64,000 nt of DNA from assembly GCA_964372275.1 (NCBI GenBank), contig CAYJRR010000001.1, forward strand, positions 4,962 through 68,961, written 5' to 3'. Shown here piece after piece: positions 8,539 through 22,581 of this stretch. Position 1 is the stretch's first letter, and every line of letters starts with the position of its first letter. Both the position numbers and the translations under genes were made by a program. The notes under the pieces are model-generated. The model saw nothing but the letters and a program-made list of their open reading frames with translations. It did not search any database and was not told where the DNA came from. Source of the DNA: an uncultured bacterium. Lineage in GTDB: Bacteria; CAYJRR01.

Positions 8539-9005
8539 TGCTGCCAGGGGCGCGGGCGCGGCGGCGGCATCCGATCGCGCAGCGCATCGCGGGTCTTGAG
8601 CCGTGCCACCCGGCCGAACACCAGCCGGTCGAGCGCCTCGTCCTCTTCGTCGATGCGGGCATCACGCGATTCGAGCCGGATCAGCCGCGCCTCGATCCGG
8701 TCGAGCGACGCCTGCGCAATCTCGTCGGCGTCGCGCGATTCGTGGCTCCCGCGGTGCACCAGCGTCGCGGTGAGGACGACGAACGCCAGCAGCTGGAGGA
8801 ACTCCGACTGCCAGTTCTCGAACGTCGACTCGCCCCACGTCCAGATGTAGCCACCGGGCCCCCACACGCGAGCCATGCCGCCATGAGCGCCCTGTTCGTC
8901 GGCGAAGGCGTGCCAGCCCATCCAGGTCTGGAGCGTCCAGCTCACCAGCAGCAGGGCGAGCAGCGTCAGGCTCAGGCTGTAGTTCGTCCAGAGGCGGCGA
9001 ATCAT
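8535..9005 (-). CDS. small membrane protein with a coiled-coil tail (possibly DUF6766 family)
   Basis: MIRRLWTNYSLSLTLLALLLVSWTLQTWMGWHAFADEQ has two TM helices. This is followed by an Arg/Glu-rich coiled coil. Confidence 0.5.
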   Translation of the reverse strand: MIRRLWTNYSLSLTLLALLLVSWTLQTWMGWHAFADEQGAHGGMARVWGPGGYIWTWGESTFENWQSEFLQLLAFVVLTATLVHRGSHESRDADEIAQASLDRIEARLIRLESRDARIDEEDEALDRLVFGRVARLKTRDALRDRMPPPRPRPWQH

Positions 9006-9103
9006 GGAGCCTTCTCCCCGTTCTGGTGGCCGGGGGCCCGGACGCAAGCGCACGCGGGAGGACCGGGTGGTCTGGCGGCCGCCGAGCCGCTACGCTCTCC
9101 CCC

Positions 9104-9688
9104 GTGATCCTCCGCGCCCGCCGGGCCGGCCTCGTGTCCGCGATCTCCGCCGCGACGGGTGCCTTCCTCTTCGCCGCGACCGCCGGCTGCGTACGGGCCG
9201 GCGGACCGGGGACGGCGGCGCCGAAACACGGCACGATGGAGAACGACTGGTGCGGCGAGCACGGAGTGCCGGAATCGCAGTGCCGGATCTGCAATCCGGA
9301 GATCGCCCTCCCCGCTGCGCAGGCGTCGGCCGACGTGAAGACGATCGCCCACGCCGGCGAGGACGTCCCGGCCCTGGAGGCGCACCTGGTTCCGGGAAAG
9401 GTGACGGTCTTCGACTTCTACGCCGACTGGTGCGGCCCCTGCCGCCAGATCGACGCCCACATGCTCGCCGTCGCCAACGGCCTCCCGCACGTCGCGTATC
9501 GCAAGCTCAACGTCCTGGCCTGGGACTCGGCGCTGGCCAAGCGGTACCTGGGGCGCGTGGCGGGGCTGCCGTACGTCGTCGTCTACGGACGCGACGGATC
9601 GCGGGTCCGCGAGATCGTGGGATTGAACCTGCTCGCGCTCGACGCAGCGATCCAGGAAGGGGCGAACGTGAAGGGGGGAGGCCGATGA
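9104..9688 (+). CDS. thioredoxin-fold lipoprotein (WCGPC active site)
   Basis: GTG start, then signal peptide LRARRAGLVSAISAATGAFLFAATAGC. The mature part has FDFYADWCGPCRQ. The stop overlaps the ATG of the next ORF (ATGA). Confidence 0.65.
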   Translation: MILRARRAGLVSAISAATGAFLFAATAGCVRAGGPGTAAPKHGTMENDWCGEHGVPESQCRICNPEIALPAAQASADVKTIAHAGEDVPALEAHLVPGKVTVFDFYADWCGPCRQIDAHMLAVANGLPHVAYRKLNVLAWDSALAKRYLGRVAGLPYVVVYGRDGSRVREIVGLNLLALDAAIQEGANVKGGGR

Positions 9689-10689
9689 GGCGGAGCGGGC
9701 GGATCGCGGCGGCGGTCCTGTTCGTCGCGAGCATCGCGCTCCCGGTGCGCGGCTTCGCCTGAGCGGGGTGAAGCAATCCCAATCTCCCGGTCGGGGGATC
9801 CGAGGGCGGAACGGCGGTCGAGGGGGGCTGGATCGTCGGCGCGTCGGCGACCGGCTCGACCGCCCGGGTGCGCCACGATGCGCCGGAGGACGATCCGCCG
9901 ACCGAGCACGACCAGCGCTTCTGGCTCGGGGAGCTGACGTTGAGCGCGATCGTCGGGCTGTCCGACCGGTTGGCCATCCACGCGCAGGCCCCGTTCCGGT
10001 GGACGCGCAGCGCGGTCGACTTCCGGCGGCTGGACGGCGAGCCCCTCGATCCGGAGTACGAGAGCGTTCACCACCGCGACGAGACGCTGCGCGGTCCGGG
10101 AGATCCGCGCGTCGGCGGTCGGCGCCGATTCGTCGCAGGGGGGATCGCCGGCACCGTCGAGCTGGGACTGACCGTCCCCCTCGGGCGCACCGAGCCGAAC
10201 CCATTCGCGCTCGGCGCCGCCGGGAAGCGGCACCAGCACCTGCAGTTCGGCACCGGCACCTTCGATCCGTTCGTGGAGATCGACCTCTCGCGCCGGGACG
10301 GGACGGTGGCGGTCGGCGCGCGGGCGGAGGCACGTCTGCCGTGGACCGAGAACGAGCACGGGTATCGCGCCGGTCGGCGCTGGAGCGGCGGGCTGCGGAC
10401 CGTCTTCCCGCCGCGGCGGGGGATCGAGGCGACGGCGCGCCTCGACCTCCACCGCGAAGAGCCGGAGCGCTGGGGCGGCCGCGTGCCCGGCGAAGGGAAC
10501 CTCGGTCGAACCGACCTGCTCCTCGGGGGATCGGTCTCGATCCCGCGGGGACCGTACCGCGCGTCGATCGGACTGGCGGTCCCGCTCTGGCGGCGCGTGG
10601 CCGGCGCGCAGGTCGAGTGGCCGGCGATCGTCACCGTCGGCGTGACGCGCGCGATCGGTCCCGGCGGTATCCTGCGCGCGGAGGAGTGA
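9685..10689 (+). CDS. outer-membrane beta-barrel (MetA-pathway/'transporter' family-like) protein, interrupted by two in-frame TGA codons after the signal peptide (pseudogene or recoded)
   Basis: Signal peptide MRRSGRIAAAVLFVASIALPVRGFA at 9685-9759. TGA at 9760-9762 and again at 9769-9771 in the same frame 1. The same frame then reads SNPNLPVGGSEGG...DQRFWLGELTLSAIVGLSD... through to 10689. There is no start codon downstream that would restore a signal peptide. Confidence 0.45.
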
Positions 10690-10690
10690 C

Positions 10691-11947
10691 ATGGATCGAC
10701 GGGAGTTCGTTTCGAACGCGGCGGCGGCGGCCGCCGCGGTGGCGGCGTGGCCGGGCGACGCGGCGGCGGCGGCGACGGAGGAGCGTCTGTGGGAGAAGCT
10801 CCGAAAGAGCTGGCTGATCCCCGACGACGTCCTCTACCTGAACAACGGCAGCGTCGGCGCCACTCCCAAGCCCGTCCTCGACGCCGTGGAGCGCTACCAG
10901 CTCGAGGTGGAGCGGTTCGCGGGGCGCCGTTACGGCGAATACCCGTGGTGGGGGTATCCCGACACCACGCTGGAATGGCGCGCCAGGGTCGGCGCGTTCG
11001 TCGGAGCGGAGGCCGACGAGATCGCGCTGACCCGCAACGCCACCGAAGCGATGTGCACGGTGGCCAGCGGGCTCGACCTGAACGCCGGCGACGAGGTGCT
11101 GATCAGCGATCAGGAGCACCCCGGAGGGAAGTCTGCGTGGCTGCAGCGCGCGAAACGCTACGGCATCGTCGTCCGCGAGTTCACGATCGGGATGCCGCCC
11201 GAAAGCCCGGCCGCCATCGTGCAGCGCGTGGCCGACGCCCTCACGCCGCGCACGCGCGTGATCAGCGTCAGCCACATCACCACCATCACCGGCGGAATGC
11301 TGCCGGTGAAGGAGATCTGCGCGCTCGCGCGGGCAAAGGGGATCGTGAGCCTGGTCGACGGTGCGCACACGCTGGGGCAGCTGCCGGTCGACGTGAAGGA
11401 GATCGGCTGCGACTACTACGCGGTGAGCCAACACAAGTGGCTGTTCGCGCCGAAGGGAACGGGGGCCCTCTATTGCCGCAAGGGAATGGCGGAGCGCCTG
11501 TGGTGCCACACCCCCTCGGTGAACTGGGACAAGCCGGAGCTGGGGGTCGAGCGCCTCTCCAACATCGGCACCACGCCGCGGTCGACGCTGATCGGGCTCG
11601 GCGCGGCGATCGACCTCTACGAGAAGGTCGGCGGCGAACGGATCGTCGCCCGACACCGCTTCCTCACCCACCTGGCGCGCGAGCGGCTGTCGGCGATCCC
11701 GGGCCTGCGCTTCATCACCGGCAGCCCCCCGGAGCTGGCGGTGGCGATGGTGCGGTTCACCCTCCCCTTCGAGAAGTTCTCGCCGATCGCGATGCGGCTG
11801 TGGGACCGGCACAAGATCTGGGTCGCTCCCGGAGACGCCGACCCGGTGATCCCCCTCGCCTCGGCCCGCCTGTCGTTCCCCTACTACATCCTCCCGCGCC
11901 ACATCGAACGCGCGGTCGAGGTCCTGCGCAAGGAGATCGCCGCCTAG
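10691..11947 (+). CDS. class V aminotransferase (cysteine desulfurase / isopenicillin-N-epimerase-like PLP enzyme) with an N-terminal Tat signal
   Basis: MDRREFVSNAAAAAAAVAAWPGDAAAAA (twin-Arg RREFV). The class-V fold shows in LYLNNGSVGATPKPVLDA, SVSHITTITGGMLPV and AVSQHKWLFAPKGTGALY (PLP Lys). Confidence 0.75.
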   Translation: MDRREFVSNAAAAAAAVAAWPGDAAAAATEERLWEKLRKSWLIPDDVLYLNNGSVGATPKPVLDAVERYQLEVERFAGRRYGEYPWWGYPDTTLEWRARVGAFVGAEADEIALTRNATEAMCTVASGLDLNAGDEVLISDQEHPGGKSAWLQRAKRYGIVVREFTIGMPPESPAAIVQRVADALTPRTRVISVSHITTITGGMLPVKEICALARAKGIVSLVDGAHTLGQLPVDVKEIGCDYYAVSQHKWLFAPKGTGALYCRKGMAERLWCHTPSVNWDKPELGVERLSNIGTTPRSTLIGLGAAIDLYEKVGGERIVARHRFLTHLARERLSAIPGLRFITGSPPELAVAMVRFTLPFEKFSPIAMRLWDRHKIWVAPGDADPVIPLASARLSFPYYILPRHIERAVEVLRKEIAA

Positions 11948-12516
11948 GAACGGGGGGAGAGCAGGCGCGCGTCGATCCGCGGTCCGGTGGCGAAGAAGGT
12001 CCCCTTCGAGAGGTGATGGATCGTCGCACGGTCGGGCGACGGGAAGCGCCACTCGTTGCCGACGAAGAGCGCGTCGTCGGCCCAGGCGGCGACCACCTCG
12101 GCGAGGAACAGGTCGTGGTCGTGGGCGAGTGCCGCGTCCGGGAGCACGCGGCACTCGAGCCACCCGGCGCAGCCGGCGATGAGTGGGGCGGCGATCGTCG
12201 AGGCGGGCTCGGTCGCAATCCCGAAGGCGGCGAACTTGTCGAGGTCGCGCCCGCTCGTCTTCCCCACCGTCCAGGTCAGGTCGGCCTGCGCGCCCACGGG
12301 GAGCGAGAGCCCGAACTCCCCCGACGCGTCGATCAGCGTGCGGGTGAAGGTGCCCCCGTCGATCACCGCCGCCACCGTGGGAGGATCGAAGTCGATCGCC
12401 ATCACCCACGCCGCGGCCATCACGTTGGCGCGGCCGCCCGCGGACGAGGTGACGAGGGTCGTCGGCCCGTGGTTGACGAGCTTGTAGGCCTTGGGAAGTT
12501 CGACCGGGACGCGCAT
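11944..12516 (-). CDS. flavin reductase-like FMN-binding split-barrel protein
   Basis: LVNHGPTTLVTSSAGGRANVMAAAWVMAIDFDPPTVAAVID is typical of the flavin reductase domain. Confidence 0.7.
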   Translation of the reverse strand: MRVPVELPKAYKLVNHGPTTLVTSSAGGRANVMAAAWVMAIDFDPPTVAAVIDGGTFTRTLIDASGEFGLSLPVGAQADLTWTVGKTSGRDLDKFAAFGIATEPASTIAAPLIAGCAGWLECRVLPDAALAHDHDLFLAEVVAAWADDALFVGNEWRFPSPDRATIHHLSKGTFFATGPRIDARLLSPRS

Positions 12517-12607
12517 CGTTCACCTCACCCGCCGGAGATCGGGTGGCGCAGCATACACCGCGACGCGCTTGACGATCGCGACGACGTGCGCCTATTGGGA
12601 TCCTGGA

Positions 12608-13021
12608 ATGACGACGGTCCTGTTCGCCTGCGTCCACAACGCCGGCCGGTCGCAGATGGCGGCGGCGCTCTTCAACCGGTTGGCCGATCCGGCCACGGCG
12701 CGCGCGATCTCGGCGGGGACGCGGCCCGCGGACCGGGTCCATCCCGCGGTGGTGGCGGCGATGAACGAGGAGGGGATCGACCTGTCGTCGGAGCGCCCGC
12801 AGCGACTCACCGAGAGCCTCGCGCGCGGCGCCTCGCTCCTGGTGACGATGGGGTGCGGCGACGCCTGCCCGTACGTCCCCGGCCTCGAGGTGATCGACTG
12901 GCCCCTCGAGGACCCGAACGGGAAGCCGCCGGAGGTCGTCCGGCGGATTCGCGACGACGTCCGCACGCGCGTCCGGGGGCTGCTCGCCGAGCGCGGCTGG
13001 TCGGCCCTCGAGGCACGCTGA
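12608..13021 (+). CDS. arsC: arsenate reductase / low-molecular-weight protein-tyrosine phosphatase family (ArsC, thioredoxin-coupled type)
   Basis: MTTVLFACVHNAGRSQMAAALFN (CX5R P-loop) ... MGCGDACPY. The ATG is at 12608. The longer ORF from 12491 is an artefact. Confidence 0.8.
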   Translation: MTTVLFACVHNAGRSQMAAALFNRLADPATARAISAGTRPADRVHPAVVAAMNEEGIDLSSERPQRLTESLARGASLLVTMGCGDACPYVPGLEVIDWPLEDPNGKPPEVVRRIRDDVRTRVRGLLAERGWSALEAR

Positions 13022-13869
13022 TGGACGACGTTGCCGTACGCACGACGCCCGAGCGGCGGCTGGCGGATCTCTGGGCTCGGGCGCTCGCGCTCGAGGGGAT
13101 CGCCGCGCGAGTCGATCCGACGGAGAACGGGTGGGCCGTCGTCGTGCCGGCGGACGAGGCGGAGTTGGCGGGGGGAAGCCTCGACGACCTCGACGAGGAG
13201 CCCGCGGACGAGGCGGTGCCGCAGCCGCCCCGCCGGTGGGGTCGCAGCGGGGTCGGGGTGGTCGCGGCCTGGGCGCTCCTCGCGGCTCACGCCTTCACCG
13301 GACCGTCCGGCGCGACCCCCGCCTACGAGCGCGGCGCCGCGGACGCCGGGCGCATCCTCGACGGCGAGGTCTGGCGCTCGGTGACGGCGCTCGCGCTCCA
13401 CGCCGACCTGGCGCACGCGATCGCGAACGCGGCGGCGCTGCTCGCCTTCCTGACCGCGTTGGCCTGGAGGCTCGGTCCGGGTCTCTCGCTGGCGCTTGCG
13501 ACCGGCGGCGGCGCCGCCGGCAACCTCCTCACCGCGCTCGCGATGCGCGACGCCCATCGTTCGATCGGCGCCTCGACCGCCGTCTTCGCAGTCCTGGGGA
13601 CGCTGGCGGCGCTCGGAAGCCTCGAGCCCGGCCGCCGCCGGCGCGTGTGGGTGATCGTCGCGGCGAGCGTGGCGCTGCTGGGACTGCTCGGAACGTCCGA
13701 GGGCTCGGACCTTCCGGCCCACCTGTTCGGCGGGCTCGCCGGCGGACTCCTCGGCGTCGGCGCGGCGCGGATCTGGCCGGAACCGCCAAGCGGCACGATC
13801 CAGGCGGGCTGGGCGCTCGCCACCGTCGCCGCCATCGCGCTGGCCTGGACGGCGGCCCTCGCGGCGTGA
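13021..13869 (+). CDS. rhomboid-family intramembrane serine protease
   Basis: Multi-TM protein with the rhomboid motif GASTAVFAVLG and a conserved His in a later TM (AHLFGGLAG). The ATG overlaps the arsC stop. Confidence 0.75.
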   Translation: MDDVAVRTTPERRLADLWARALALEGIAARVDPTENGWAVVVPADEAELAGGSLDDLDEEPADEAVPQPPRRWGRSGVGVVAAWALLAAHAFTGPSGATPAYERGAADAGRILDGEVWRSVTALALHADLAHAIANAAALLAFLTALAWRLGPGLSLALATGGGAAGNLLTALAMRDAHRSIGASTAVFAVLGTLAALGSLEPGRRRRVWVIVAASVALLGLLGTSEGSDLPAHLFGGLAGGLLGVGAARIWPEPPSGTIQAGWALATVAAIALAWTAALAA

Positions 13870-13909
13870 GCGCCGGGCGCCGCGCCGTCGTCACGGCGCG
13901 TCCGCGGCG

Positions 13910-14410
13910 TCACGCCCGGACGGGAGCGGCGCGGCGGACGCGTTTCTCGGCCCCGGCGTAGAGCAGCCCGAGCGGGATGCCGTAGAAGAACGCGTGCATC
14001 GTCGCCTGCATCAGCTGCGGCGCGTCGAGGAACCACGGGTAGACCAGGCGCGCGACGATCTGGAAGTTCACGAACCACAGGGCGACCCCGTAGAGCAGAC
14101 CGATCCCGATCTGCCGTCCGGGCTGCGTCTTCGCCTCGGCCGGAAGCCGCGCCGCGAGGAGTGTGTAGATCGCGCCGAACACCCCGGAGAACGCGAGATG
14201 CATCGCCGTCCCAACGACGACCGCGGTGCCCAGCGGCGTCGCCTCCAGCGCCGCCCGCCCGAGCAGCGTGCTGGCGAACATCCGGATCGGCATCAGCGCC
14301 GGCTGCTCCATCATCGAGGCGCCGACCATCTCCACGATCCCGAAGATCACGCCGGCCACGATCCCCAGGCCGACGCCCTCCTTCACCGTCCGTCCGTTCT
14401 GCACCGCCAT
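13910..14410 (-). CDS. conserved membrane protein (four predicted TM helices), transcribed divergently from merR
   Basis: Hydrophobic 166-aa ORF (GLGIVAGVIFGIVEMVGA..., LLYGVALWFVNFQIVARL...). No motif I can name. Confidence 0.5.
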   Translation of the reverse strand: MAVQNGRTVKEGVGLGIVAGVIFGIVEMVGASMMEQPALMPIRMFASTLLGRAALEATPLGTAVVVGTAMHLAFSGVFGAIYTLLAARLPAEAKTQPGRQIGIGLLYGVALWFVNFQIVARLVYPWFLDAPQLMQATMHAFFYGIPLGLLYAGAEKRVRRAAPVRA

Positions 14411-14466
14411 CGCCCCTCCCCGAGGGTCCCCTCGGGTCTGCCCTTGCGCACGATTCGCGGGGAAGA

Positions 14467-14500
14467 AAGTGCTTGAATCGGTACCTTGGTACAGGGTTCA
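14467..14500 (+). promoter_or_regulatory. MerR-type operator dyad inside a sigma-70-like promoter, directly upstream of merR
   Basis: cTTGAATCGGTACCttGGTACAGGGTTCAg. The left half TTGAATCGGTACC matches the reverse complement of the right half (TGAACCCTGTACC). This resembles the mer operator and ends 10 nt before the merR ATG. Confidence 0.55.
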
Positions 14501-14510
14501 GACTGGGGCC

Positions 14511-14939
14511 ATGGCGAGGAGCGCGACGGTGTGGCAGATCGGCCGGGTCGCCGCGGAGGCGGGGGTGAACGTGCAGACGCTCCGCTACTACGAACGCCGG
14601 GGCCTGCTCGCGCGTCCGGCACGGGCCCCGTCGGGCTTCCGTCTCTACGGGCCGGACGCGGTGGCGACGATCCGCTTCATCAAGCGCGCGCAGGAGCTCG
14701 GCTTCTCGCTCGCCGAGACCGAGGAGCTGCTTCGACTCAAGGACGACCGCCGCTCCCCCTGCGCCGAGGTGCGGGCAGCCGCCCGCGCCAAGATCGAGGA
14801 GATCGACGGCAAGCTGAAGACGCTGCGCGCCATGAAGCGGGCGCTCGCGCTGCTCGAGCGAACCTGCGCCCGCCAGGGAACGGCCCGGCGGTGCCCGATC
14901 CTGGAGGCGATCGGGTTTCCGGTCGGGGGCCGGACGTGA
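14511..14939 (+). CDS. merR: MerR-family metal-responsive transcriptional regulator with a Hg-type Cys triad
   Basis: The HTH is WQIGRVAAEAGVNVQTLRYYERRGLL. A coiled-coil dimerisation helix follows. The three Cys are spaced like the Tn21/Tn501 MerR metal-binding triad: SPC near residue 79, then TCARQGTARRCP (C-x8-C-P). Confidence 0.8.
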   Translation: MARSATVWQIGRVAAEAGVNVQTLRYYERRGLLARPARAPSGFRLYGPDAVATIRFIKRAQELGFSLAETEELLRLKDDRRSPCAEVRAAARAKIEEIDGKLKTLRAMKRALALLERTCARQGTARRCPILEAIGFPVGGRT

Positions 14940-15649
14940 GGGTGCAGCTCGTCTACTTCGGCGGATGCCCGCACGTCGACGCCACGCGCGACGCGCTCCG
15001 GCGCGCGCTCGCCGTGTGCGGACAGCCGCCGTCGTTCGAGGAGGTCGACGTCGACGCCCCCGGCACGCCTCCGTCCCATCGTCGATTCGGTTCGCCGGCG
15101 ATCGTCGTCGACGGGGTCGACCTGTTCGGCGATGGATCGGCCGCCGGATGCGCCTGCCGGATCTACGGCAACGGCCCGAAGTCGGGCGCGCCGGGGGTGG
15201 CGGCGATCACGGCGGCTCTCCGCGCACGGATGCGACGGCCGCACTGGATCGCTTCGGTCGCGCATCTTCCCGGCGCCCTTCTTCCGCTCCTCCCGGCGGC
15301 CTCGTGCCCCTTCTGCGTCGCCGCGTACGCCGGCGTGCTGTCGTCGGTTGGGCTCGGCTTCCTCCTGACCGAGCGGGTGGTCGTGCCGCTGATCGTCGCG
15401 TTCCTCCTCACGAGCCTCGCCAGCGTCGCCTGGGCGACCCGCGGTCATCGAAAAGTGGGGCCGCTGTTCGCAACGGCCCTCGGGTCCGGGGCCGTCGTCG
15501 CGGGCCGCCTGGTATGGACGTTCGAGCCGGCCGTCTACGCCGGGGTGGTGCTGCTGGTCGCCGCCTCGCTCTGGAACCTTTGGCTGAAGCGGCCGAACCC
15601 GACGCCGCTCATCCGTCTCGGCTCGACACCGTCCCAAGGAACCCGGTAA
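14936..15649 (+). CDS. Cys-motif protein: thioredoxin-like N-terminal domain (CPH, GCAC) fused to a 3-4 TM domain (CPFC), candidate thiophilic-metal binding/transport protein of the mer-like operon
   Basis: GTG start overlapping the merR stop. The N-terminus is VQLVYFGGCPHVDATRDALRRALAVCG...AIVVDGVDLFGDG...GCACRIYG. TM helices then carry LLPLLPAASCPFCVAAYAGVL. The resemblance to MerT/MerC/DUF2703 is from memory. Confidence 0.55.
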   Translation: MRVQLVYFGGCPHVDATRDALRRALAVCGQPPSFEEVDVDAPGTPPSHRRFGSPAIVVDGVDLFGDGSAAGCACRIYGNGPKSGAPGVAAITAALRARMRRPHWIASVAHLPGALLPLLPAASCPFCVAAYAGVLSSVGLGFLLTERVVVPLIVAFLLTSLASVAWATRGHRKVGPLFATALGSGAVVAGRLVWTFEPAVYAGVVLLVAASLWNLWLKRPNPTPLIRLGSTPSQGTR

Positions 15650-15669
15650 TAACTCCCACGGAGGTCCGT

Positions 15670-15873
15670 ATGAAGAAGGTCGTCGTCGGAGTCCTGTTCG
15701 CGCTCTCCCTTGCCGGCTGCGCGGCGAAGTCGGCCCGCATCGCCGCGAACTGTCCGCTCGCCGGCACGGCGGCGTGCCCGCTCACGAGCTGCCCGCTCGC
15801 CGGCACCCCCGAGTGTCCGCTGAAGAAGGCGTCCTGCTGCGCGGCCGGCGGCGCGGTCGCCGAGGCGAGGTAG
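15670..15873 (+). CDS. small Cys-rich lipoprotein with three CPL(A)GT repeats, candidate periplasmic metal-binding protein
   Basis: RBS-like GGAGG upstream. MKKVVVGVLFALSLAGC (lipobox), then AAKSARIAANCPLAGTAACPLTSCPLAGTPECPLKKASCCAAGGAVAEAR. That is 9 Cys in 50 mature residues. Confidence 0.6.
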   Translation: MKKVVVGVLFALSLAGCAAKSARIAANCPLAGTAACPLTSCPLAGTPECPLKKASCCAAGGAVAEAR

Positions 15874-15882
15874 GAGGGGCGC

Positions 15883-16248
15883 ATGACCACGACTCGACGG
15901 ACCTTCCTGCTGACCGCCCTCGCCTTTTGCGCCGGCGCCGCCGACACGCCGCCCCGCCGGCTGGAACCGTGGGAGCCGATCGACCCGACCTTCACCGGCT
16001 GCGAAGGGGGCTGAGGGCGGCGCGCACGCGGCCGGTCGGCCGACGTCCAGGAGCAACCCGGTGCGGCGGTCGGCGATCGCGCCTACTGCGTGGTGAGCGG
16101 GGTCGTCTTTTCCGTGAAGGACGCGAGCCCCTCGGCCGCGCTCGACGGGCGCACGATCTACTTCTGCTGCCAGGGCTGCGCCGACTGGTTCACCCTGCAC
16201 CGCGACGAGGTCCTCGCCGCCCGCGGACTCGCCCCGCGGGTCGATTGA
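15883..16248 (+). CDS. Tat-signal protein with a YHS/TRASH-like metal-binding domain, interrupted by an in-frame TGA at 16012-16014 (selenocysteine, readthrough or pseudogene)
   Basis: AGGAGGGG RBS, then ATG at 15883. The ORF reads MTTTRRTFLLTALAFCAGAADTPPRRLEPWEPIDPTFTGCEGG-TGA-GRRARGRSADVQEQPGAAVGDRAYCVVSGVVFSVKDASPSAALDGRTIYFCCQGCADWF... all in one frame. The first domain Cys lies before any possible downstream start codon. Confidence 0.5.
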
Positions 16249-16268
16249 CGCCCCGTGATTCCGGTGAT

Positions 16269-16784
16269 GTGGTGCGGCCGGTGAAACGCGTCGCGAGAGC
16301 CGTTCGAGCGTCGACCTGCCTGGTCGCGCTGATGGGCGGGCAGGCGAGCGCCGTCGCCCATTTCGCGGCGCACGACCGGCCGCACCTCCACGAGGCGGAC
16401 GGCTCGACGGTCTGGTTGGACGGTTCGGCGCCGATCGATCCGGCGCAGCCGCTCGACGTCCGTGCCCTCTACCTCCGGCTCGCGTCCCAGATCGGCGCGA
16501 GCCACGCGCACGCCGACGCGCCGCACGACCACGATCACGGCGACGCGCACGGGGACGGCGACGACGGCGGCGACCACCCTGGCGACGACGGCGCTCCGTC
16601 CTCCCGACATCACGAGGCCCGCGGACCGTTGCACTTCGCGGGTGTCTCTCTTCCGACCGTGCACTCGGTCTTTTCGGCGCAGCTCGCGCCATCGCGACCG
16701 CTGCGGACGCCCGAGCCCGCACGCGCCGCGGTGACGGACCGCGTCGAACCCGGAGCGCCGCGGGGACCACCCCCAGGCCGGTAG
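16269..16784 (+). CDS. secreted His/Asp-rich protein, candidate metal-binding periplasmic protein
   Basis: GTG start. Signal-like VRPVKRVARAVRASTCLVALMGGQASAVAHF, then HAHADAPHDHDHGDAHGDGDDGGDHPGDDGAPSSRHHE. The coding call is weakened by spurious high-GC ORFs on both strands here. Confidence 0.45.
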   Translation: MVRPVKRVARAVRASTCLVALMGGQASAVAHFAAHDRPHLHEADGSTVWLDGSAPIDPAQPLDVRALYLRLASQIGASHAHADAPHDHDHGDAHGDGDDGGDHPGDDGAPSSRHHEARGPLHFAGVSLPTVHSVFSAQLAPSRPLRTPEPARAAVTDRVEPGAPRGPPPGR

Positions 16785-16836
16785 CGCGGTCCGTTGAGCG
16801 CTCCACCGGTTCGGCCCCCCTCCTCGAGGTCCGTCG

Positions 16837-18999
16837 ATGCACCGACTCGTGTCGGCAGGCGTCTGCCTGCTCGCGATCTTCCGTCTAACGTCCGCTGCCG
16901 GCAGAGAGACCGGCCCGGAACCGTCGCCGCCGACGGACCCGGCAGGATCCCCGACCCCGACGGCGACTGCCGCGCCCATCGCCGAGGCGAAGGCCGAGGA
17001 GCTGGTCGTCACCGCCCGGAAGCCGCTTCAAGCGGCGAGCTCGAAGGAGGTCCGCGATCGCGACTTCCTCCTTCGGCCGCACCCCCGACCGGCCGACGTG
17101 CTGATGGTGACGCCGGGTCTCTACGTCGTGCAGCACGCCGGAGGCGGCAAGGCGAACCAATATTTCCTCCGCGGGTTCGACGCCGATCACGGGACCGACG
17201 TGGCCCTGTCGGTCGACGGCGTCCCGGTCAACATGGTCAGCCACGGTCACGGGCAGGGGTATGCCGACCTCAACTGGTTGATCCCCGAGGTGGTCGAGAC
17301 GATCGAGGTGTCGAAAGGCCCCTACGACGCCTCCCACGGCGATTTCGCCACCGCGGGCGCCGTCAACCTGGTGACGCGCGAGGGGTTCGAGGCTCACCGG
17401 GTCTCCGTCGGCGGAGGGATGTTCGGCACCTACCGCACGCTGCTGGTGACGAGCCCGACGATCCCCGGCTGGAAGCCGTTCGTCGCCGTCGAGCTCCACG
17501 GCACCGACGGCCCCTTCGACCGTCCGGAGCGCCTGCAACGATTCGGTCTGTTCGGAAAGGTCTCGCGCGAGCTCGAGGGGGGATCCTCGTTGTCGCTGGC
17601 GGCCACGGGGTACGGCGCGGGCTGGAACGCCTCCGGGCAGATCCCGTTGCGCGAACTCCGCCGCGGCGACCTGGACCGGTTCGGGACCGTCGACGAGACC
17701 GAGGGCGGCAACTCGGAGCGCTACAGCCTCTACGGCTCCTGGAGGGCCCGCGGCGCGGCCGGAGACGAGATGGAGCTCTTGGCCTATGCCGCGTCGTACC
17801 GCCTGAGCCTCTTCTCGAACTTCACCTTCTTCCGCCGCGATCGGGTGAACGGCGACCAGATCGAGCAGCAGGACCGGCGGACCCTGTTCGGCGTCGCCGG
17901 TCGCTGGCGCCGGCAGCGGTTGATCGGGGCGACCGTCTTCGACACGACGCTCGGCTTCCGCACCCGCACCGACCGCATCGAGAACGGCCTTTACCGCGAC
18001 CGGGAGCGGGAACGGATGGCGACCGTCGTCGACGCGTCGATCGACGAAGCGTCGCTGGGGGTCCACGCGCAAGAGGAGATCGTCTGGACGCCGTGGCTTC
18101 GCACCGTGGTCGGCGGGCGCGTCGATCGCGTCGACTTCCGGGTCGACGACCGTCTCGAGGATCTCTCGACGCAGGAGACGCGCACCTCCGGCGTGGCGCA
18201 GAAGACGCTCCTCAGCCCCAAGGCGTCGGCGATCCTCTCGCCGCTCCGCGACACCGACCTCTTCCTGAACGTCGGCACCGGATTCCATTCAAACGACGCC
18301 CGCGGCGTGGTGCGCGGGCAGGATGCCGTCACGCCGCTCACGCGCGCGATCGGCTACGAGCTCGGCGCGCGGACCCGTCTCCTCGACCGCGTCGACCTGG
18401 CCGCCGCCCTGTTCCGGATCGATCTCGACAGCGAGATCGTGTGGGTCGGCGATGAAGGGGTCACCGAGGCGAGCGGGGCGACGCGCCGCGACGGCGTCGA
18501 GATCGAAGCGCGCGCGCGCCTCCTGCCGTGGCTCTTCGCCGATGCCGACGCCAACTTCGTTCGCGCGGAGTTCACGCGGAACCCGGGGAACGCCGACGCC
18601 GTCGCACTCGCGCCGACGCGCCTGGTATCGGGAGGGATCTCGGCCCGGCATCCCGCCGGCTGGTACGGCCGCCTGGGCGCCCTGCACATCGGCGACCGTC
18701 CCGCGACCGAAGACCGCTTCCTGACCGCCGAAGGGTTCACCCGTGTCGACCTCTCCGCCGGCTACCGTCGCGGCCGCTGGGAGGTCTCCACGTCGGTGCA
18801 GAACCTGACGAACACCGAATGGCGGGAGGCCCAGTTCGCCACCGTCTCCCGTCTGGCGGACGAAGAGACCGCCGCCGACTGCCCGCCCGGCACGCGCGCC
18901 CGCGCCGACGGCGGCGGCGCCTTCGACGGCTGCGAAGACCTCCACTTCACCCCCGGCGCCCCGATCAACGTCCAGGCGACCGCGACGCTCCACTTCTGA
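16837..18999 (+). CDS. TonB-dependent outer-membrane receptor
   Basis: Signal peptide, then plug-domain motifs (DVLMVTPGLYV, ANQYFLRGFDADHGTDVALSVDGVP, ETIEVSKGPYDASHG). It is 720 aa and ends in a C-terminal F. Confidence 0.85.
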   Translation: MHRLVSAGVCLLAIFRLTSAAGRETGPEPSPPTDPAGSPTPTATAAPIAEAKAEELVVTARKPLQAASSKEVRDRDFLLRPHPRPADVLMVTPGLYVVQHAGGGKANQYFLRGFDADHGTDVALSVDGVPVNMVSHGHGQGYADLNWLIPEVVETIEVSKGPYDASHGDFATAGAVNLVTREGFEAHRVSVGGGMFGTYRTLLVTSPTIPGWKPFVAVELHGTDGPFDRPERLQRFGLFGKVSRELEGGSSLSLAATGYGAGWNASGQIPLRELRRGDLDRFGTVDETEGGNSERYSLYGSWRARGAAGDEMELLAYAASYRLSLFSNFTFFRRDRVNGDQIEQQDRRTLFGVAGRWRRQRLIGATVFDTTLGFRTRTDRIENGLYRDRERERMATVVDASIDEASLGVHAQEEIVWTPWLRTVVGGRVDRVDFRVDDRLEDLSTQETRTSGVAQKTLLSPKASAILSPLRDTDLFLNVGTGFHSNDARGVVRGQDAVTPLTRAIGYELGARTRLLDRVDLAAALFRIDLDSEIVWVGDEGVTEASGATRRDGVEIEARARLLPWLFADADANFVRAEFTRNPGNADAVALAPTRLVSGGISARHPAGWYGRLGALHIGDRPATEDRFLTAEGFTRVDLSAGYRRGRWEVSTSVQNLTNTEWREAQFATVSRLADEETAADCPPGTRARADGGGAFDGCEDLHFTPGAPINVQATATLHF

Positions 19000-19038
19000 A
19001 CGCATGGTGGCCGGCCCGGATGCTCTAGAATCGGGCGG

Positions 19039-20190
19039 TTGGTCGGGCGCGTCCTCCGGTACGTCTTCGCGCGCGTCTACTTCCGGTGGACCCTACGGAA
19101 GCCGTTGCAGTTGCGCTCCCGGCGCCCCCGCCGCAAGGATCCCGAGATCCCCTACACCGGCTGCTTCTGGTCGGGCCGCTGGTGGAAGGGGTACGTGGAG
19201 GGGATCCCCTTCGCGGTTCATCCGGTGGAGTTCCGCCGAGGGGGGATCCGTGGACAGCTCTTTCTGGGCGCCTTCGACTACGACTGGAACACCGGCTTCT
19301 TCCGGGACGGTGAAGGGGCGCCGCTCGTCCACGACGACGGTCTCACGCCACGCCCGCCGCACCCGGAGCTGGAGTGCGCCGCCGTCCACGACGCCGTGCC
19401 GCGGCTGAGCCCGGCCGTCCGGCACATCGCCTTCGGCCACCGCGGGATCGCCGTCTCCAAATACGGTCCGGCGTCCCTGGAGACCTTCCGTTCCGACCTC
19501 GATCTCCTCGCGGGCGTCGTGAAGGCGCTCCAGTCGCGCACCGATCCGCCGCTGGTGGCCGCCGTCGAGAGGGGCGACGTCGACCGGGCGCAGCGCCTCC
19601 TCGGCGCAGGGGAGGATCCGAATCGCGTCGGCCCCTTCCAACACACCCACCGCGCGTTCGGTCGCACGGGGTTCAAGGCGCCGCTGCACCTGGCGGCCGA
19701 CGCCGGAAACACGGCGATGGTGCGCGCGCTCCTCGACGCCGGGGCCCGCCTGGAGGACGTGCCGTTGGCGCTGGCCTTCGCGATCGAGCACGGCCACCTC
19801 GATACGGCGCGTCTGCTCGCGACCCGGATCGCGAGACAAATGGAGTTCCATCGGAGCCTGGACTGCGTCCTCTGGCTGGCGCCACCGCCGCTGGACGAGA
19901 CGAACGCGCTCGACCTTGCCAGTCGCAAAGGGAACCTGGAGATGGTCCGGATGCTCCTCGAGGCGGGAGCGAGCCCGTCGGCGGCACCGCGTTTCCGGGG
20001 GATCGCCTACCCGAATCTCGACCCGTGGCGCAGCGCCGCCGGGCCGGACCGACAGGCGATTCGCGAGGCGATCACCGTCGCCCGGGTCGGCCGGTCGCCC
20101 GAAGGAGGACTCTCGCTGGCGACGACGTCCGGCGCCGCGGGCGCCTTGTCCCCTCCGGCCGCCGACGGCGCGCTCTCCCTGAAGCGCTAG
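19039..20190 (+). CDS. ankyrin-repeat protein with an unknown N-terminal domain and the shared C-terminal 'GLSLA...GALSxP...GALS' tail
   Basis: ANK repeats (PLHLAADAGNTAMVRALLDAGARLED, ALAFAIEHGHLDTARLL, LDLASRKGNLEMVRMLLEAGASP). The tail is [34 protein letters not shown] or other alternative start is likely. Confidence 0.6.
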   Translation: MVGRVLRYVFARVYFRWTLRKPLQLRSRRPRRKDPEIPYTGCFWSGRWWKGYVEGIPFAVHPVEFRRGGIRGQLFLGAFDYDWNTGFFRDGEGAPLVHDDGLTPRPPHPELECAAVHDAVPRLSPAVRHIAFGHRGIAVSKYGPASLETFRSDLDLLAGVVKALQSRTDPPLVAAVERGDVDRAQRLLGAGEDPNRVGPFQHTHRAFGRTGFKAPLHLAADAGNTAMVRALLDAGARLEDVPLALAFAIEHGHLDTARLLATRIARQMEFHRSLDCVLWLAPPPLDETNALDLASRKGNLEMVRMLLEAGASPSAAPRFRGIAYPNLDPWRSAAGPDRQAIREAITVARVGRSPEGGLSLATTSGAAGALSPPAADGALSLKR

Positions 20191-21428
20191 CGATCCACGC
20201 CCTTCTTCGCGTCAGGCAGCGACAGCGCCGCCGCCGGGGCGGCGAGGGTGACCTGGCCGCCGGTGCCAGCGTCGGCGATCGCCAGGCTCCCGGCGTGGTC
20301 GTGGAGGATCCGTTCGGCCCGCTCGCGGACGCTGCCGGCGGCGCCCGTCTCGACCAGGTGACGGGCCGCGCGGTGGCGGACGCGGGGATCGGCGTCCTCC
20401 ATCGCCCGTTCGCTCGTCGACCGCGCGAGGTTCGCCGCGGCGGTCGCGCCCCGAAGCAGCGCGTCGAGGTTCGCCAGCCGCACCCCCGGCTCCGGGTCGG
20501 CGAGGGCGTTGTGCGCGAGCCGGGAGAGGGGCCACGCCGCGTCGCCGTCCGATCCCGCGGGAAGGAGAGCGGTCAACGTCACCAGCTCGTCAACCATCCC
20601 CGGCAGTCCACGACCGCCGCCGCGCGAGGAGATCCGATGGCGCGCGCGCAGCCGCCCTCCCCCGACCACCACCCCGGCCTGCAACGCCTCCGCGAGCGCC
20701 ATCCGCACCGGTCGGGTCAGCAGGGCGAGCGCCGTCGCCTCGTCGCCCCGAAGGAACGCGAGGTCGTCGAACGCGGCGTCGCCGGTGACGACCTGCTCCT
20801 TCCGCAACGCGGCGCGGAGCCCCGTCGTCGAGCCCTCGCGCTCGATCGCCAGGTCCCCCCATCGCGCGTCCCCCACCTCGACCCACGCCTCGCCCCCCTC
20901 CAGCGCGCGCAGAAGGACGGGAACGCCGCGAACCTCGCCGCGCGCCTCCGGCATCCGGAAGTAGCGCTGGCGCGTGGCAAGTCCCAGTCGATGCGAGGCC
21001 TCCGCCAGCGCGCGACCCGCCGCTCCGCCGAGCGCGCCGGCGTGCAGGAAGCCGGCGCCGACCGCCATCACCAGCAACCCGAACGCGAAGCCGACGAATC
21101 GCGCGAAGATCCCGGCGCCCGACTCCTCCGGCATCGCCCCGGCGAGCATCAGCCCCATGCCGAAGACGAGCGCGCCGATGGTGATCCCGCCGTGCCCCGG
21201 CGTGAGGCGGACGAAGCTCCCCACGATCCCCCAGAGCCCGCCGACCACCATCAGGGCCGCCCCGATCGCGTGCGCCACCGTCCCGATCGGACCCAGCGGC
21301 GGTTCGATGTCGTGGTGGAGGACCCCCCAGACCCAGATCGATCCGAAGACGACTCCGAACAACCCGATGCAGCCCGCCCCCTGATTCAGCCCCGCCGCCT
21401 CGCCCTGGATCTGCTCGCGCCAGCCCAT
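20187..21428 (-). CDS. membrane protein (four N-terminal TM helices) with a cytoplasmic HEAT/ARM-like repeat domain and the shared C-terminal tail
   Basis: TM helices GCIGLFGVVFGSIWVWGVL ... FAFGLLVMAVGAGFL. Cytoplasmic helical repeats follow (DPRVRHRAARHLVETGAAGSVRERAERIL). The tail is HAGSLAIADAGTGGQVTLAAPAAALSLPDAKKGVDR. Confidence 0.55.
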   Translation of the reverse strand: MGWREQIQGEAAGLNQGAGCIGLFGVVFGSIWVWGVLHHDIEPPLGPIGTVAHAIGAALMVVGGLWGIVGSFVRLTPGHGGITIGALVFGMGLMLAGAMPEESGAGIFARFVGFAFGLLVMAVGAGFLHAGALGGAAGRALAEASHRLGLATRQRYFRMPEARGEVRGVPVLLRALEGGEAWVEVGDARWGDLAIEREGSTTGLRAALRKEQVVTGDAAFDDLAFLRGDEATALALLTRPVRMALAEALQAGVVVGGGRLRARHRISSRGGGRGLPGMVDELVTLTALLPAGSDGDAAWPLSRLAHNALADPEPGVRLANLDALLRGATAAANLARSTSERAMEDADPRVRHRAARHLVETGAAGSVRERAERILHDHAGSLAIADAGTGGQVTLAAPAAALSLPDAKKGVDR

Positions 21429-21465
21429 CCGGGCGATACGATACTACCGGCCGTACAATCGATCG

Positions 21466-21984
21466 GTGCGTCTGGTGCCGACCTCAAAGCTGCTGGGGTG
21501 CCTCTATCCGATCGCCTGGCTCGTTCTGATGTGCGGAGGGATCGGAGGGGCGTTCGCCGTGGTGCCCTACGTCTTCGACGGCTCACCGTACGCGCTTCTC
21601 TTTCTGCCTGCGTTCGGAGCGGGACCGGCGTTGATCTACCTGCTCGCACTCGTTTGGCGCGTGATTCCGGCGCGGTGCCAACGTCCCGGATGCCCGGGGC
21701 TCGCGTATCTCCACGGAGACTTCCAGTATCGGTGCGCTCTCTGCGGATTCGACAACACCGACACGGCCGGAAAGATGTCCGGGAACTGGCGCCCGGACTG
21801 GATCGAGCGACTCTCGCACGAGCGCATCGCCCCCGTGCTCCGATCGCTCTCGCGACGTCACCCGGAGGGCCGGCTTTCGCTCGCCCAACCCCGATCGGAG
21901 GGGGCGTTGAGCGAGCCCGCACAGCCCGGGGCCGTCTCGGTGTCGACGGAGCGGGTCGAAGGCTCCCGCGAGGCTCCTGAGTAG
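21466..21984 (+). CDS. membrane-anchored zinc-ribbon protein (paralog 1) with the shared C-terminal tail
   Basis: Two or three TM helices, then CQRPGCPGLAYLHGDFQYRCALCGFDN (C-x4-C ... C-x2-C). The tail is HPEGRLSLAQPRSEGALSEPAQPGAVSVSTERVE. Confidence 0.6.
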   Translation: MRLVPTSKLLGCLYPIAWLVLMCGGIGGAFAVVPYVFDGSPYALLFLPAFGAGPALIYLLALVWRVIPARCQRPGCPGLAYLHGDFQYRCALCGFDNTDTAGKMSGNWRPDWIERLSHERIAPVLRSLSRRHPEGRLSLAQPRSEGALSEPAQPGAVSVSTERVEGSREAPE

Positions 21985-21988
21985 GGAC

Positions 21989-22480
21989 GTGAGCCCTCGG
22001 CGAAAAATTGCCCTGCTCTCCGAACCGGTGGCGATCGCCGCTTTCCTGGCAGGCGGCCTCGGCGGTCTGCTCCTCGGCATGCAACTCGTTCACGTCCATC
22101 CGCTCATCGGGCTCGTCGCAGGCTGCATCGGCATGCTGGTCGGAAGCATCATCCCGCCGTTCGTGCTCGACCTCGTCATCACTCTCCTTCCGTCCAGGTG
22201 TTCCACATGCGGCGTACGGTCGGCGTACGAGATCGACGGAGGGTGGTTCGCGTGCACGAAATGTGGAGCCCGCTGGCACCTGAACGCCGGGGACGTGGGG
22301 GCCGATTTCCCTGCGTCCATCGTCCTCACCCGGGCGAAGGTCGTTCGCGCATTGGCACGGCTGCGTGGGACGCCCCACGGCAGAGTCTCGCTTGCCGCAC
22401 CCGATGCACCGCCTGACGGAGCCCTCAGCGAGCCAAACCGCGATGGAGCGCTTTCCACGCCCGATACCGACGAGGATTGA
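21989..22480 (+). CDS. membrane-anchored zinc-ribbon protein (paralog 2) with the shared C-terminal tail
   Basis: Same architecture: TM helices, then CSTCGVRSAYEIDGGWFACTKCG. The tail is TPHGRVSLAAPDAPPDGALSEPNRDGALSTPDTDED. This is a tandem duplicate of 21466..21984. Confidence 0.6.
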   Translation: MSPRRKIALLSEPVAIAAFLAGGLGGLLLGMQLVHVHPLIGLVAGCIGMLVGSIIPPFVLDLVITLLPSRCSTCGVRSAYEIDGGWFACTKCGARWHLNAGDVGADFPASIVLTRAKVVRALARLRGTPHGRVSLAAPDAPPDGALSEPNRDGALSTPDTDED

Positions 22481-22506
22481 GCGCACCCTCGAACCGCCTC
22501 TACGAA

Positions 22507-22581
22507 TGGCTGGGGAGGGTGGATTCGAACCACCGGATGTCGGCTCCAAAGGCCGATGCCTTACCGCTTGGCGACTCCCCA
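22507..22581 (-). tRNA. tRNA-Gln (anticodon TTG)
   Basis: The minus strand reads TGGGGAG-TC-GCC-AAGCGGTAA-GGC-A-TCGGC-CTTTGGA-GCCGA-CATCC-GGTGG-TTCGAAT-CCACC-CTCCCCA-G-CCA. Acceptor, D, anticodon and T stems all pair. The anticodon UUG sits in loop C-U-UUG-G-A. CCA is encoded. Confidence 0.85.

Follow-up and report, generated by a model that had tools for sequence, protein, structure and literature searches.

Gene layout at the tRNA-Gln locus

The locus was analysed within a window of 64 kb (the whole stretch of DNA under study). It comprises four protein genes and one tRNA gene, all of which were recovered at the positions given in an earlier note on this DNA. The four protein genes lie within a larger segment, at its tRNA-Gln end:

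P1, 19039..20190, + strand: 383 aa; N-terminal ~165 aa uncharacterised, ankyrin repeats at residues ~170-315, followed by the tail
P2, 20187..21428, - strand: 413 aa; four transmembrane (TM) helices; C-terminal half mostly helical and cytoplasmic
P3, 21466..21984, + strand: 172 aa; two TM helices, Cys4 zinc ribbon, linker helix, tail
P4, 21989..22480, + strand: 163 aa; paralog of P3 with two TM helices, Cys4 zinc ribbon, tail
tRNA-Gln (anticodon TTG), 22507..22581, - strand: predicted by ARAGORN; 64 bits with Rfam
Segment between prs and tRNA-Gln, 4938..22506, no strand assigned: 17.5 kb, lineage-specific, from synteny and Pfam

The stop codons of P1 and P2 overlap within the palindrome CTAG. 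P4 starts only 4 nt past P3, and both genes are therefore probably cotranscribed. The tRNA gene faces the cluster with its 3′ end, from which the stop codon of P4 is separated by 26 nt.

The assignment of P1 as an ankyrin protein was confirmed (Pfam Ank, E 1e-15), and its ankyrin part was modelled with confidence by AlphaFold2. P1 is identical to an entry of an NCBI-derived collection (P0001); the nearest other proteins are no closer than generic ankyrin matches. P2 had been described as a TM protein with HEAT repeats; the TM part of this description holds (four segments), but the HEAT match is weak (Pfam, E 0.11). P3 and P4 are indeed paralogous TM zinc-ribbon proteins (BLASTP 5e-10), each with two TM helices and four Cys.

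The location next to a tRNA gene had been taken as a sign of a genomic island, which the synteny comparison (covering 80 ispE loci) bears out in part. In ~40 loci of distant relatives, the genes follow the widely conserved order ispE, tRNA-Gln, prs, and tRNA-Gln and prs lie 40-170 bp apart versus 17.5 kb here, which corresponds to an insertion at the 3′ end of tRNA-Gln. However, neither an integrase nor a transposase domain was found in the 17.5-kb segment (Pfam), nor a direct repeat of the tRNA-Gln 3′ end, even when up to three mismatches were allowed. GC content shows only a mild dip over P3 and P4. Beside the cluster, the segment encodes a TonB-dependent receptor, a MerR regulator, a low-molecular-weight phosphatase, a flavin reductase, a class-V aminotransferase, DUF4382, and DUF6766 (Pfam).

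The C-terminal motif and the family it belongs to

All four proteins had been thought to end in a common tail. This applies to P1, P3, and P4 by shuffling, BLASTP, HMM, and hhalign, but not to P2 by any of the standard tests:

P1 tail, 20092..20187, + strand: residues 352-383, 32 aa; shuffles, BLASTP, tail HMM, hhalign
P2 tail, 20190..20297, - strand: residues 378-413, HAGSLAIADAGTGGQVTLAAPAAALSLPDAKKGVDR; spacing match only
P3 tail, 21856..21981, + strand: residues 131-172, RHPEGRLSLAQPRSEGALSEPAQPGAVSVSTERVEGSREAPE; shuffles, tail HMM, P3/P4 window comparison
P4 tail, 22367..22477, + strand: residues 127-163, GTPHGRVSLAAPDAPPDGALSEPNRDGALSTPDTDED; shuffles, tail HMM

The P3 tail had been quoted with an incomplete ending, as GSREAPE continues beyond "...STERVE". 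In P1, P3, and P4, the ~30 residues of the tail read P-x-G-x-[LV]-S-L-A, then at +11-13 residues G-A-L-S-x-P, and at exactly +9 residues G-A-[LV]-S, a motif defined from only five or six sequences. Whether such a resemblance could arise by chance from low complexity was checked with composition-preserving shuffles, of which none (0/5000) attained the scores of the P1, P3, and P4 tails. Pairwise local alignments of these tails gave z-scores of 8.4 to 9.6, and BLASTP also detected the similarity (P1-P3, 5e-4; P1-P4, 0.003). The tail HMM scored 54-73 bits on the three proteins, with a top background score of 8.6 bits among 12,500 six-frame ORFs. When the whole 64 kb was translated in six frames, clusters of G-x-[LV]-S turned up in the three tails only; strict and relaxed motif scans of these frames yielded no further copy, and every copy in the window is C-terminal. 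Thus, the motif of P1, P3, and P4 is real, both conserved and rare.

The P2 tail was non-significant in BLASTP (0.2) and with the tail HMM (0.2 bits), and hhalign gave no match. It can be read as G-S-L-A, G-Q-V-T at +11 residues, and A-A-L-S at +9 residues, and these spacings of 11 and 9 fit the architecture. A relaxed three-unit regular expression matched only P1-P4 and one homolog (P0059; see below) in 1.83 million residues. Shuffles of the P2 tail matched the relaxed pattern at a rate of 2-5e-4, which is optimistic because the pattern was drawn up after P2 had been seen. Ala and Thr stand in place of motif serines in P2. Its tail may at best be considered a degenerate or decayed copy of the motif.

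A full HMMER search of 1.84 billion representative proteins with the family profile returned just two more true relatives, both from other metagenomes: P0059 (179 aa, E 4e-16), with the tail HPAGRLSIAVPGVAEGALSPAAE..., and P0061 (167 aa, E 1e-5), with the tail RRGSVSVVQPGTEGSLSDPS.... Both have two TM helices and Cys4 and keep tail units 1 and 2; unit 3 of P0059 carries Ala. Apart from these, the tail part of the profile had a significant match in this search only to P1 (49.5 bits). By hhalign, P1 matched the family profile with E 2.8e-5 and, when the tail was left out, with E 0.18; its similarity to the family is thus limited to the tail.

The zinc ribbons of the two paralogs lie at the following positions:

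P3 zinc ribbon, bases 21676-21744, + strand: residues 71-93, Cys4
P4 zinc ribbon, bases 22199-22264, + strand: residues 71-92, Cys4

Two Cys pairs (CxxC or CxxxxC, 13-15 residues, CxxC) are conserved across the homologs. The family profile matched the zinc ribbons of L37Ae, TFIIB, and S27e weakly (E 0.01-0.06), and Pfam ribbon models scored below their cut-offs on P3 and P4. In the four-member alignment, three zinc-ligand cysteines (C71, C90, and C93) never vary; the fourth is found in all members, but its position is shifted. G135, S138, P142, G146, L148, and S149 are likewise invariant. No segment of the family is better conserved than the tail, which accompanies the ribbon in all members (4/4). 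At the loci of P0059 and P0061, no neighbouring gene carried the tail and no ankyrin or HEAT gene was found nearby. Genes with the tail are thus seen to cluster only in the present genome.

Consequently, the tail is the native C-terminal module of a rare family of 2-TM zinc-ribbon proteins. This is new compared with the earlier note, where it had been viewed as an independent tag shared by four scaffolds of equal standing. It follows that P1 appears to carry a transplanted family tail, which looks like a secondary acquisition.

The codon differences between the tails that had been reported are correct, and so is the view that their likeness is kept at the protein level. Synonymous sites approach saturation (pS 0.5-0.8), against a pN of 0.26-0.40; serine codons change class (TCN vs AGC), and a search for a DNA repeat joining the tails found none. 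In the alignment of P3 with P4, no other stretch of 30 columns is as well conserved as the tail, which has 16 identities compared with 4-10 elsewhere (permutation p = 0.026).

It is also conceivable that the tail functions only together with the ribbon of the family, serving perhaps as its latch or as a strand for dimerisation, and that the copies on P1 and P2 are relics of partial duplication or fusion in a region prone to insertions and rearranged. The constant pairing of tail and ribbon, the mixed content of the lineage-specific insertion, and the decayed appearance of the P2 copy are all consistent with this notion. However, a functionless disordered tail would be expected to decay, as that of P2 may have done, and the P1 tail retains all invariant positions despite saturation of its synonymous sites. 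This reading is rather doubtful, even if it is the foremost of the alternatives weighed here.

Possible roles of the tail

By the positive-inside rule, the tails face the cytoplasm, as had been proposed, and so does the zinc ribbon; both locations are predictions from topology. AlphaFold2 predicts the tails to be disordered (pLDDT <50 for P1 residues 356-383 and for the P2 tail) and, at low confidence, places no β strands in them. In the model of P1, the tail is not docked onto the protein's own ankyrin groove, which is weak negative evidence because the tail lacks alignment depth. Searches of Pfam, NCBIfam, and PADLOC gave no model for the tail, in agreement with the earlier view that no such tag has been described. 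The tail also lacks the hallmarks of the known C-terminal sorting signals: no model of this kind in NCBIfam or Pfam was returned by hmmscan for the four proteins (E up to 1), none of the four has a TM-like stretch within its last 100 residues, and the combination of a terminal TM helix with a basic cluster is missing.

We consider a multivalent docking peptide the most likely role of the tail, and assign a probability of roughly 0.4 to the reading that a C-terminal module of the zinc-ribbon family was grafted onto P1 and serves as a putative cytoplasmic docking peptide. The family consists of small inner-membrane proteins in which two TM helices are followed by a Cys4 zinc ribbon predicted to be cytoplasmic, a short helix, and the tail. 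In this genome, it has duplicated into P3 and P4, and its last 30-35 codons also occur on the neighbouring ankyrin protein P1, with a decayed version probably present on the 4-TM helical P2. The tail itself is a multivalent short linear motif kept by purifying selection; its two or three G-x-[LV]-S units have a fixed spacing, and neither Gly nor Ser varies in units 1 and 2. All carriers would bind the same partner, either a cytoplasmic protein or the family's own zinc-ribbon domain, and docking would tether the ankyrin protein to the membrane site of P3 and P4. The "one common recognition system" that had been envisaged gained no backing from linked genes, as no protease, kinase, or transferase was linked to the tail in the window and at the two other family loci. 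The tail is an orphan motif.

If the tail were a cytoplasmic degron for an AAA+ protease (FtsH, ClpXP, or Lon) or its adaptor, the membrane proteins and the ankyrin protein would be turned over jointly. Such a role is compatible with the C-terminal position of the tail, its predicted disorder and cytoplasmic location, its conservation above that of the folded parts of the protein, and its presence on different scaffolds of one gene cluster. The extreme C-termini differ, however (...LSLKR, ...GVDR, ...EAPE, and ...DTDED in P1 to P4), the motif stopping 3-20 residues ahead of the stop codon, and the tails are therefore unlike classical C-end degrons with their fixed terminus. In addition, no protease or adaptor gene co-occurs across the three loci, and the PrsW protease encoded in the window is 28 kb away, which makes a degron unlikely.

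Still less probable is a modification site, with the invariant serines of G-x-[LV]-S as targets of phosphorylation, perhaps by one of the Hanks-type kinases that such genomes commonly encode, or of another modification. The proteins could in this way be switched on and off jointly. All five clear members have Ser in units 1 and 2, never Thr, and it is preceded by a fixed Gly at -3 and by Leu or Val at -1. Two unvarying serines would be explained by modification no less readily than by docking. The window also encodes a Ser/Thr kinase of 1493 aa (AAA_16, TPR) and the low-molecular-weight phosphatase, but neither is adjacent to the cluster and both are missing from the other two loci. The replacement of serines by Ala and Thr in P2, and by Ala in unit 3 of P0059, also argues against this role, and we know of no bacterial kinase consensus that fits the tail.

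Comparison with known systems

C-terminal sorting signals (PEP-CTERM, GlyGly-CTERM, MYXO-CTERM, LPXTG, and the T9SS C-terminal domain) resemble the tail in that one C-terminal sequence occurs on unrelated N-terminal domains. They, however, either combine a motif with a hydrophobic TM helix and a basic cluster or form a folded C-terminal domain, and they function extracytoplasmically in concert with a dedicated sortase, whereas the tail is predicted to be cytoplasmic and lacks a hydrophobic helix.

Cargo-loading peptides of encapsulins are likewise short, disordered, Gly/Ser/Leu-rich, and C-terminal on different cargo proteins encoded nearby. The family 1 cargo peptide has a consensus of the type ...GSLxIGSLK; P1 ends in ...GALSLKR. 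In contrast to encapsulin cargo, the carriers are here integral membrane proteins, the units read G-x-L-S instead of G-S-L, and no encapsulin shell (Linocin_M18, HK97-like) was found among the ~55 ORFs of the window scanned with Pfam.

The short linear motifs that bind repeat scaffolds (ligands of ankyrin or HEAT grooves) and multivalent docking tails are also disordered and repeat a short motif; here, too, ankyrin and helical-repeat proteins are encoded beside the motif carriers. Against this likeness stand the undocked P1 tail in the AlphaFold2 model and the other family loci, which have no ankyrin or HEAT neighbours.

In bacterial amyloid signalling (BASS) systems, a short terminal motif is common to the unrelated products of adjacent genes, and Gly/Pro-rich spacers part the pseudorepeats (bioRxiv 10.1101/2020.01.06.895854; 10.1101/2024.11.07.622273). 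More generally, amyloid motifs (fungal HET-s, sigma, and PP; BASS1-11, e.g. Bab/Agp) share with the tail a terminal stretch of ~20-30 aa encoded in side-by-side genes, one partner carrying ligand-binding repeats (ANK, TPR, or WD) while its counterpart is directed to the membrane. By analogy with this genomic logic, the tail might mediate homotypic assembly or amyloid-like signalling through short β-strands between Gly/Pro turns. The ankyrin protein would then be a sensor that signals to the membrane effectors P2-P4, as in systems with BASS/HET-s-type motifs. The alternation of hydrophobic and small residues in the units (L-S-L-A, V-S-V), each preceded by Gly, is in line with this idea. However, all copies are C-terminal, whereas the motif is N-terminal in BASS sensors; strict and relaxed six-frame scans of the 64 kb revealed neither such an N-terminal sensor copy next door nor a second copy of the motif. 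Neither a NACHT or NB-ARC (STAND) domain nor a Bell or other cell-death effector domain was found in the four proteins (Pfam, NCBIfam, PADLOC) or their neighbours (Pfam, PADLOC), and NOD/NLR, HeLo, and Q/N-rich signatures are also missing; the sole AAA_16-TPR protein of the window is 29 kb distant and begins with a kinase domain. Conserved prolines and charged residues lie within the motif, AlphaFold2 gives no β structure, and family members of other genomes stand alone without partners. Amyloid-like signalling is therefore the least credible of the roles considered. That tails associate with each other, or with the zinc ribbon, and thereby link the ankyrin sensor to the small membrane proteins, as a novel type of cytoplasmic peptide for assembly or signalling, is a long shot; if true, such an association would represent an NLR-less bacterial counterpart of the BASS/HET-s amyloid signalling motifs.

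The C-terminal tails of P1 to P4

In the window, whose G+C content is 72%, positions 19039-22581 contain a tRNA gene and four ORFs that each show a clear coding signature:

19039-20190 (+): P1, 383 aa, ankyrin repeats (Pfam Ank, E 1e-15)
20187-21428 (-): P2, 413 aa, four TM helices plus a cytoplasmic half that is helical
21466-21984 (+): P3, two TM helices, four cysteines laid out as a zinc ribbon
21989-22480 (+): P4, two TM helices, four cysteines laid out as a zinc ribbon
22507-22581 (-): tRNA-Gln(TTG), 3′ end and P4 stop codon separated by 26 nt

In P1, which has neither a signal peptide nor a TM segment, the repeats are preceded by an uncharacterised region of ~165 aa; PDB sequence searches with this region and with P2 gave no match, and the HEAT match of P2 was weak (E 0.11). 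P3 and P4 are paralogs (BLASTP 5e-10, 31% identity), with a GC3 of 0.80 and 0.74, respectively, compared with about 0.9 in neighbouring genes. The stop codons of the converging P1 and P2 genes overlap in a palindrome, CTAG (20187-20190), and no intergenic terminator is present there. By exact look-up in the contig index, the P1, P2, and P4 ORFs as read here were not on record. A collection of 15 billion proteins contained P1 and P2 of the same contig and lacked P3 and P4 in the form read here; these two were either left unannotated in the source record or called from another start codon.

The tail considered here is a C-terminal peptide of about 30-35 residues with two or three G-x-[LV]-S units, numbered 1 to 3 from the N-terminal side. 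That all four proteins share it, as proposed in an earlier note made from the sequence, was largely correct: the common tail of P1, P3, and P4 is real, and P2 has only a probable degenerate copy. Local alignment of the last ~40 residues of P1, P3, and P4 scored 63-70, compared with 23 ± 5 in composition-preserving shuffles (z = 8.4 to 9.6); none of 5000 shuffles reached the observed scores, which places the similarity above what low complexity would yield. BLASTP with compositional adjustment gave 5e-4 (P1-P3) and 0.003 (P1-P4). An HMM of the three tails scored 54-73 bits on P1, P3, and P4 and 8.6 bits on the best background ORF (background: the window and 1.25 Mb of unrelated loci, 12,500 six-frame ORFs in all), and clusters of G-x-[LV]-S were confined to these tails across the six reading frames of the 64-kb window. 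From Gly to Gly, units 1 and 2 are 11-13 residues apart, units 2 and 3 exactly 9. When P3 was compared with P4, the tail was the most conserved 30-column window (16 identities versus 4-10 elsewhere; permutation p = 0.026).

The P2 tail, by contrast with these three, was not recovered by BLASTP (0.2), by the tail HMM (0.2 bits, about 1000th among 13,500), or by hhalign, which aligned nothing in the tail. By eye it has the same architecture, that is, G-S-L-A-I-A, G-Q-V-T-L-A-A-P starting 11 positions further, and A-A-L-S-L-P starting 9 positions beyond that. A relaxed pattern ([GA].[LV][STA].{7,9}[GA].[LV][STA].{5}[GA].[LV][STA]) matched only P1, P2, P3, P4, and one metagenomic homolog (P0059; see below) among six-frame ORFs totalling 1.83 million residues, always within 20 residues of the stop codon, and matched shuffled P2 tails 2-5 times per 10,000. 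Because the pattern was composed after P2 had been seen, the copy in P2 is graded as probable and not as proven.

The proposal that the likeness is maintained at the protein level was borne out. Since no repeat connects the tails of P1-P4 at the DNA level, identical residues are encoded by differing codons (including TCN/AGC serine switches), and synonymous sites have almost reached saturation (pS 0.5-0.8 versus pN 0.26-0.40), the motif is under selection. A DNA repeat or MITE as the source of the tails was ruled out by the same saturation and the absence of a repeat family.

The zinc-ribbon family and further carriers

A profile combining P3 and P4 with the tail of P1 returned five matches in a full HMMER search of 1.84 billion representative proteins. 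Two (P0060 and P0062) were spurious repeat proteins, and P1 was found through its tail only (49.5 bits). The remaining two are genuine P3/P4 homologs: P0059 (179 aa, E 4e-16) from a JGI metagenome, encoded at loci L081 and L082, and P0061 (167 aa, E 1e-5) from a Logan assembly, encoded at L083. Each has two TM helices, four cysteines, and the tail (P0059, ...HPAGRLSIAVPGVAEGALSPAAEAGGLAEAPGA...; P0061, ...RRGSVSVVQPGTEGSLSDPSIAKSVP...). In the four-member alignment, tail residues G135, S138, P142, G146, L148, and S149 are invariant, as are the zinc-ligand cysteines C71, C90, and C93; the fourth cysteine is present in all members at a shifted position. Because the homologs keep the tail with its invariant residues, and because it is the best conserved part between P3 and P4, the alignments indicate that the tail is an integral, selected part of a small family of zinc-ribbon membrane proteins.

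The family profile also matched P1 (hhalign, E 2.8e-5). Homology reaching into the zinc-ribbon region was rejected, the likeness being insignificant once the tail was removed (E 0.18), which is why P1 is best described, on sequence grounds, as an ankyrin scaffold unrelated to the family except for bearing its last ~35 residues.

At L081, L082, and L083, no ORF besides the family member carries the tail, and its neighbours are unlike those in the window: at L081 it is preceded by a 2136-aa beta-propeller/Peptidase_C25 protein, and at L083 it lies between an upstream Peptidase_S8/PKD protein and a downstream alpha/beta hydrolase. It is rather unlikely that the tail acts solely within the zinc-ribbon family, the copies in P1 and P2 being relics; the selection seen in the tails, that of P1 included, would not be expected of a relic. 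Immediately upstream of each of the two family members outside the window is a gene for a large secreted peptidase (L081 3585-10540, gap of 5 nt; L083 1-2204, overlap of 4 nt), an adjacency that may reflect either chance or a true functional connection. The upstream S8/PKD protein of L083 ends (about 1600-1704) in ...CSTGPGRRSPLSLLLLLIGVALSRRTRR; its cysteine, TM helix, and Arg-rich end resemble MYXO-CTERM, which hints at Myxococcota-like hosts of the family.

Further carriers were sought more widely. Among 5.8 billion proteins searched through a word index, the P3/P4 profile had no matches and P1 retrieved itself and generic ANK matches only; the tail profile had zero matches there and missed P1 itself, so that this result carries no weight. 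Back-translated tail patterns matched 257 times in viral contigs, 144 times in GTDB species representatives, and 428 times in JGI metagenomes, none confirmed by tblastn, and a scan with the P3 + P0059 alignment found nothing; these collections evidently contain neither the source genome nor the L081 sample. Against the tail HMM derived from the window, the tail of P0059 by itself scores just 24 bits, so a database-wide search would miss diverged tails on other scaffolds.

Genomic setting beside tRNA-Gln

The window is core chromosome. The following genes flank the segment in question:

1517-4937: rpsR, rpsF, pth, rplY, prs
23605-24504: ispE

The order ispE, tRNA-Gln, prs, (rplY), pth, (rpsF) is found in about 40 of 80 ispE loci of distant bacteria, with 40-170 bp between tRNA-Gln and prs, compared with 17.5 kb in the window. 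The widespread order ispE, tRNA-Gln, prs, rplY, pth, rpsF, rpsR (1517-4937 and 22507-24504) is here broken by 17.5 kb of mixed cargo, and the four-gene cluster forms the tRNA-proximal end of this insertion. Thus, of the suggested island at the 3′ side of tRNA-Gln, the insertion itself stands; an integrase, a transposase, and an att repeat or copy of the tRNA 3′ end were looked for in the segment and none was found. Its composition shows only a mild dip, over P3 and P4. The nearest ispE relatives are ~43% identical and offer no orthologous cluster for close-relative synteny. The segment is a lineage-specific variable region beside a tRNA, not a demonstrable mobile island. In several distant 'Deltaproteobacteria' MAGs (L015, L017, L030, L041, and L074), ispE and tRNA-Gln are present with no prs within 7-9.5 kb downstream, and for this reason insertion or rearrangement may recur in the 3′ flank of tRNA-Gln.

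Two further observations concern the window. An 836-aa open frame (4940-7450, +; GC3 0.82) overlaps a DUF4382 gene on the opposite strand (5120-5713, -; GC3 0.91), and either of the two may be the real gene. At 50088-55936, a gene for a PrsW-family intramembrane protease converges on one for a 1493-aa Ser/Thr kinase + AAA_16 + TPR protein (STAND-like).

Possible function of the tail

Neither Pfam, NCBIfam, nor PADLOC has a model matching the tail, curated C-terminal sorting signals included; the tail lacks a terminal hydrophobic helix, and literature searches returned nothing relevant. The motif is genuinely undescribed, as the earlier note had supposed. It is rare, traced to one protein family, and has no attached machinery. 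A degron or adaptor tag, which the C-terminal position would suit, is for its part unlikely, and modification of the tail serines, two of them invariant, is more doubtful still; the PrsW and kinase/AAA_16/TPR proteins lie 28 kb from the cluster and are not associated with the tail motif.

AlphaFold2 predicted the ANK domain of P1 with confidence and residues 356-383 with pLDDT below 50; the P2 tail was unstructured, in a single-sequence model too poor for a fold search. The model did not dock the P1 tail on its own ANK groove and left it disordered, a weak sign against such docking. By the positive-inside rule, the ribbon and tails of P3/P4 and the C-terminal half of P2 are predicted to be cytoplasmic.

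The tail is more conserved than the folded domains to which it is attached, is found on two or more unrelated scaffolds, and resembles nothing described, and so marks an uncharacterised interaction. Our preferred reading, tentatively held (probability roughly 0.4), is that it is a multivalent docking peptide. Each carrier would bind one common partner, which may be a protein of the cytoplasm or else the zinc-ribbon family's own ribbon domain; in the source genome, the ankyrin protein (and perhaps also P2) would thereby be recruited to the membrane site of P3/P4. Its reach appears small (three lineages among 1.84 billion proteins, with single genes only outside the source genome). If the docking partner were found, the function of an orphan zinc-ribbon membrane family would be defined; a widespread system is unlikely.

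Short linear motifs common to the products of neighbouring genes have more than once opened up new biology, such as sorting signals, cargo-loading peptides, and the amyloid signalling of phage defence. By analogy with the last, the bacterial amyloid signalling motifs (BASS) common to adjacent genes' products, homotypic amyloid-like signalling through the tail is conceivable but highly improbable.
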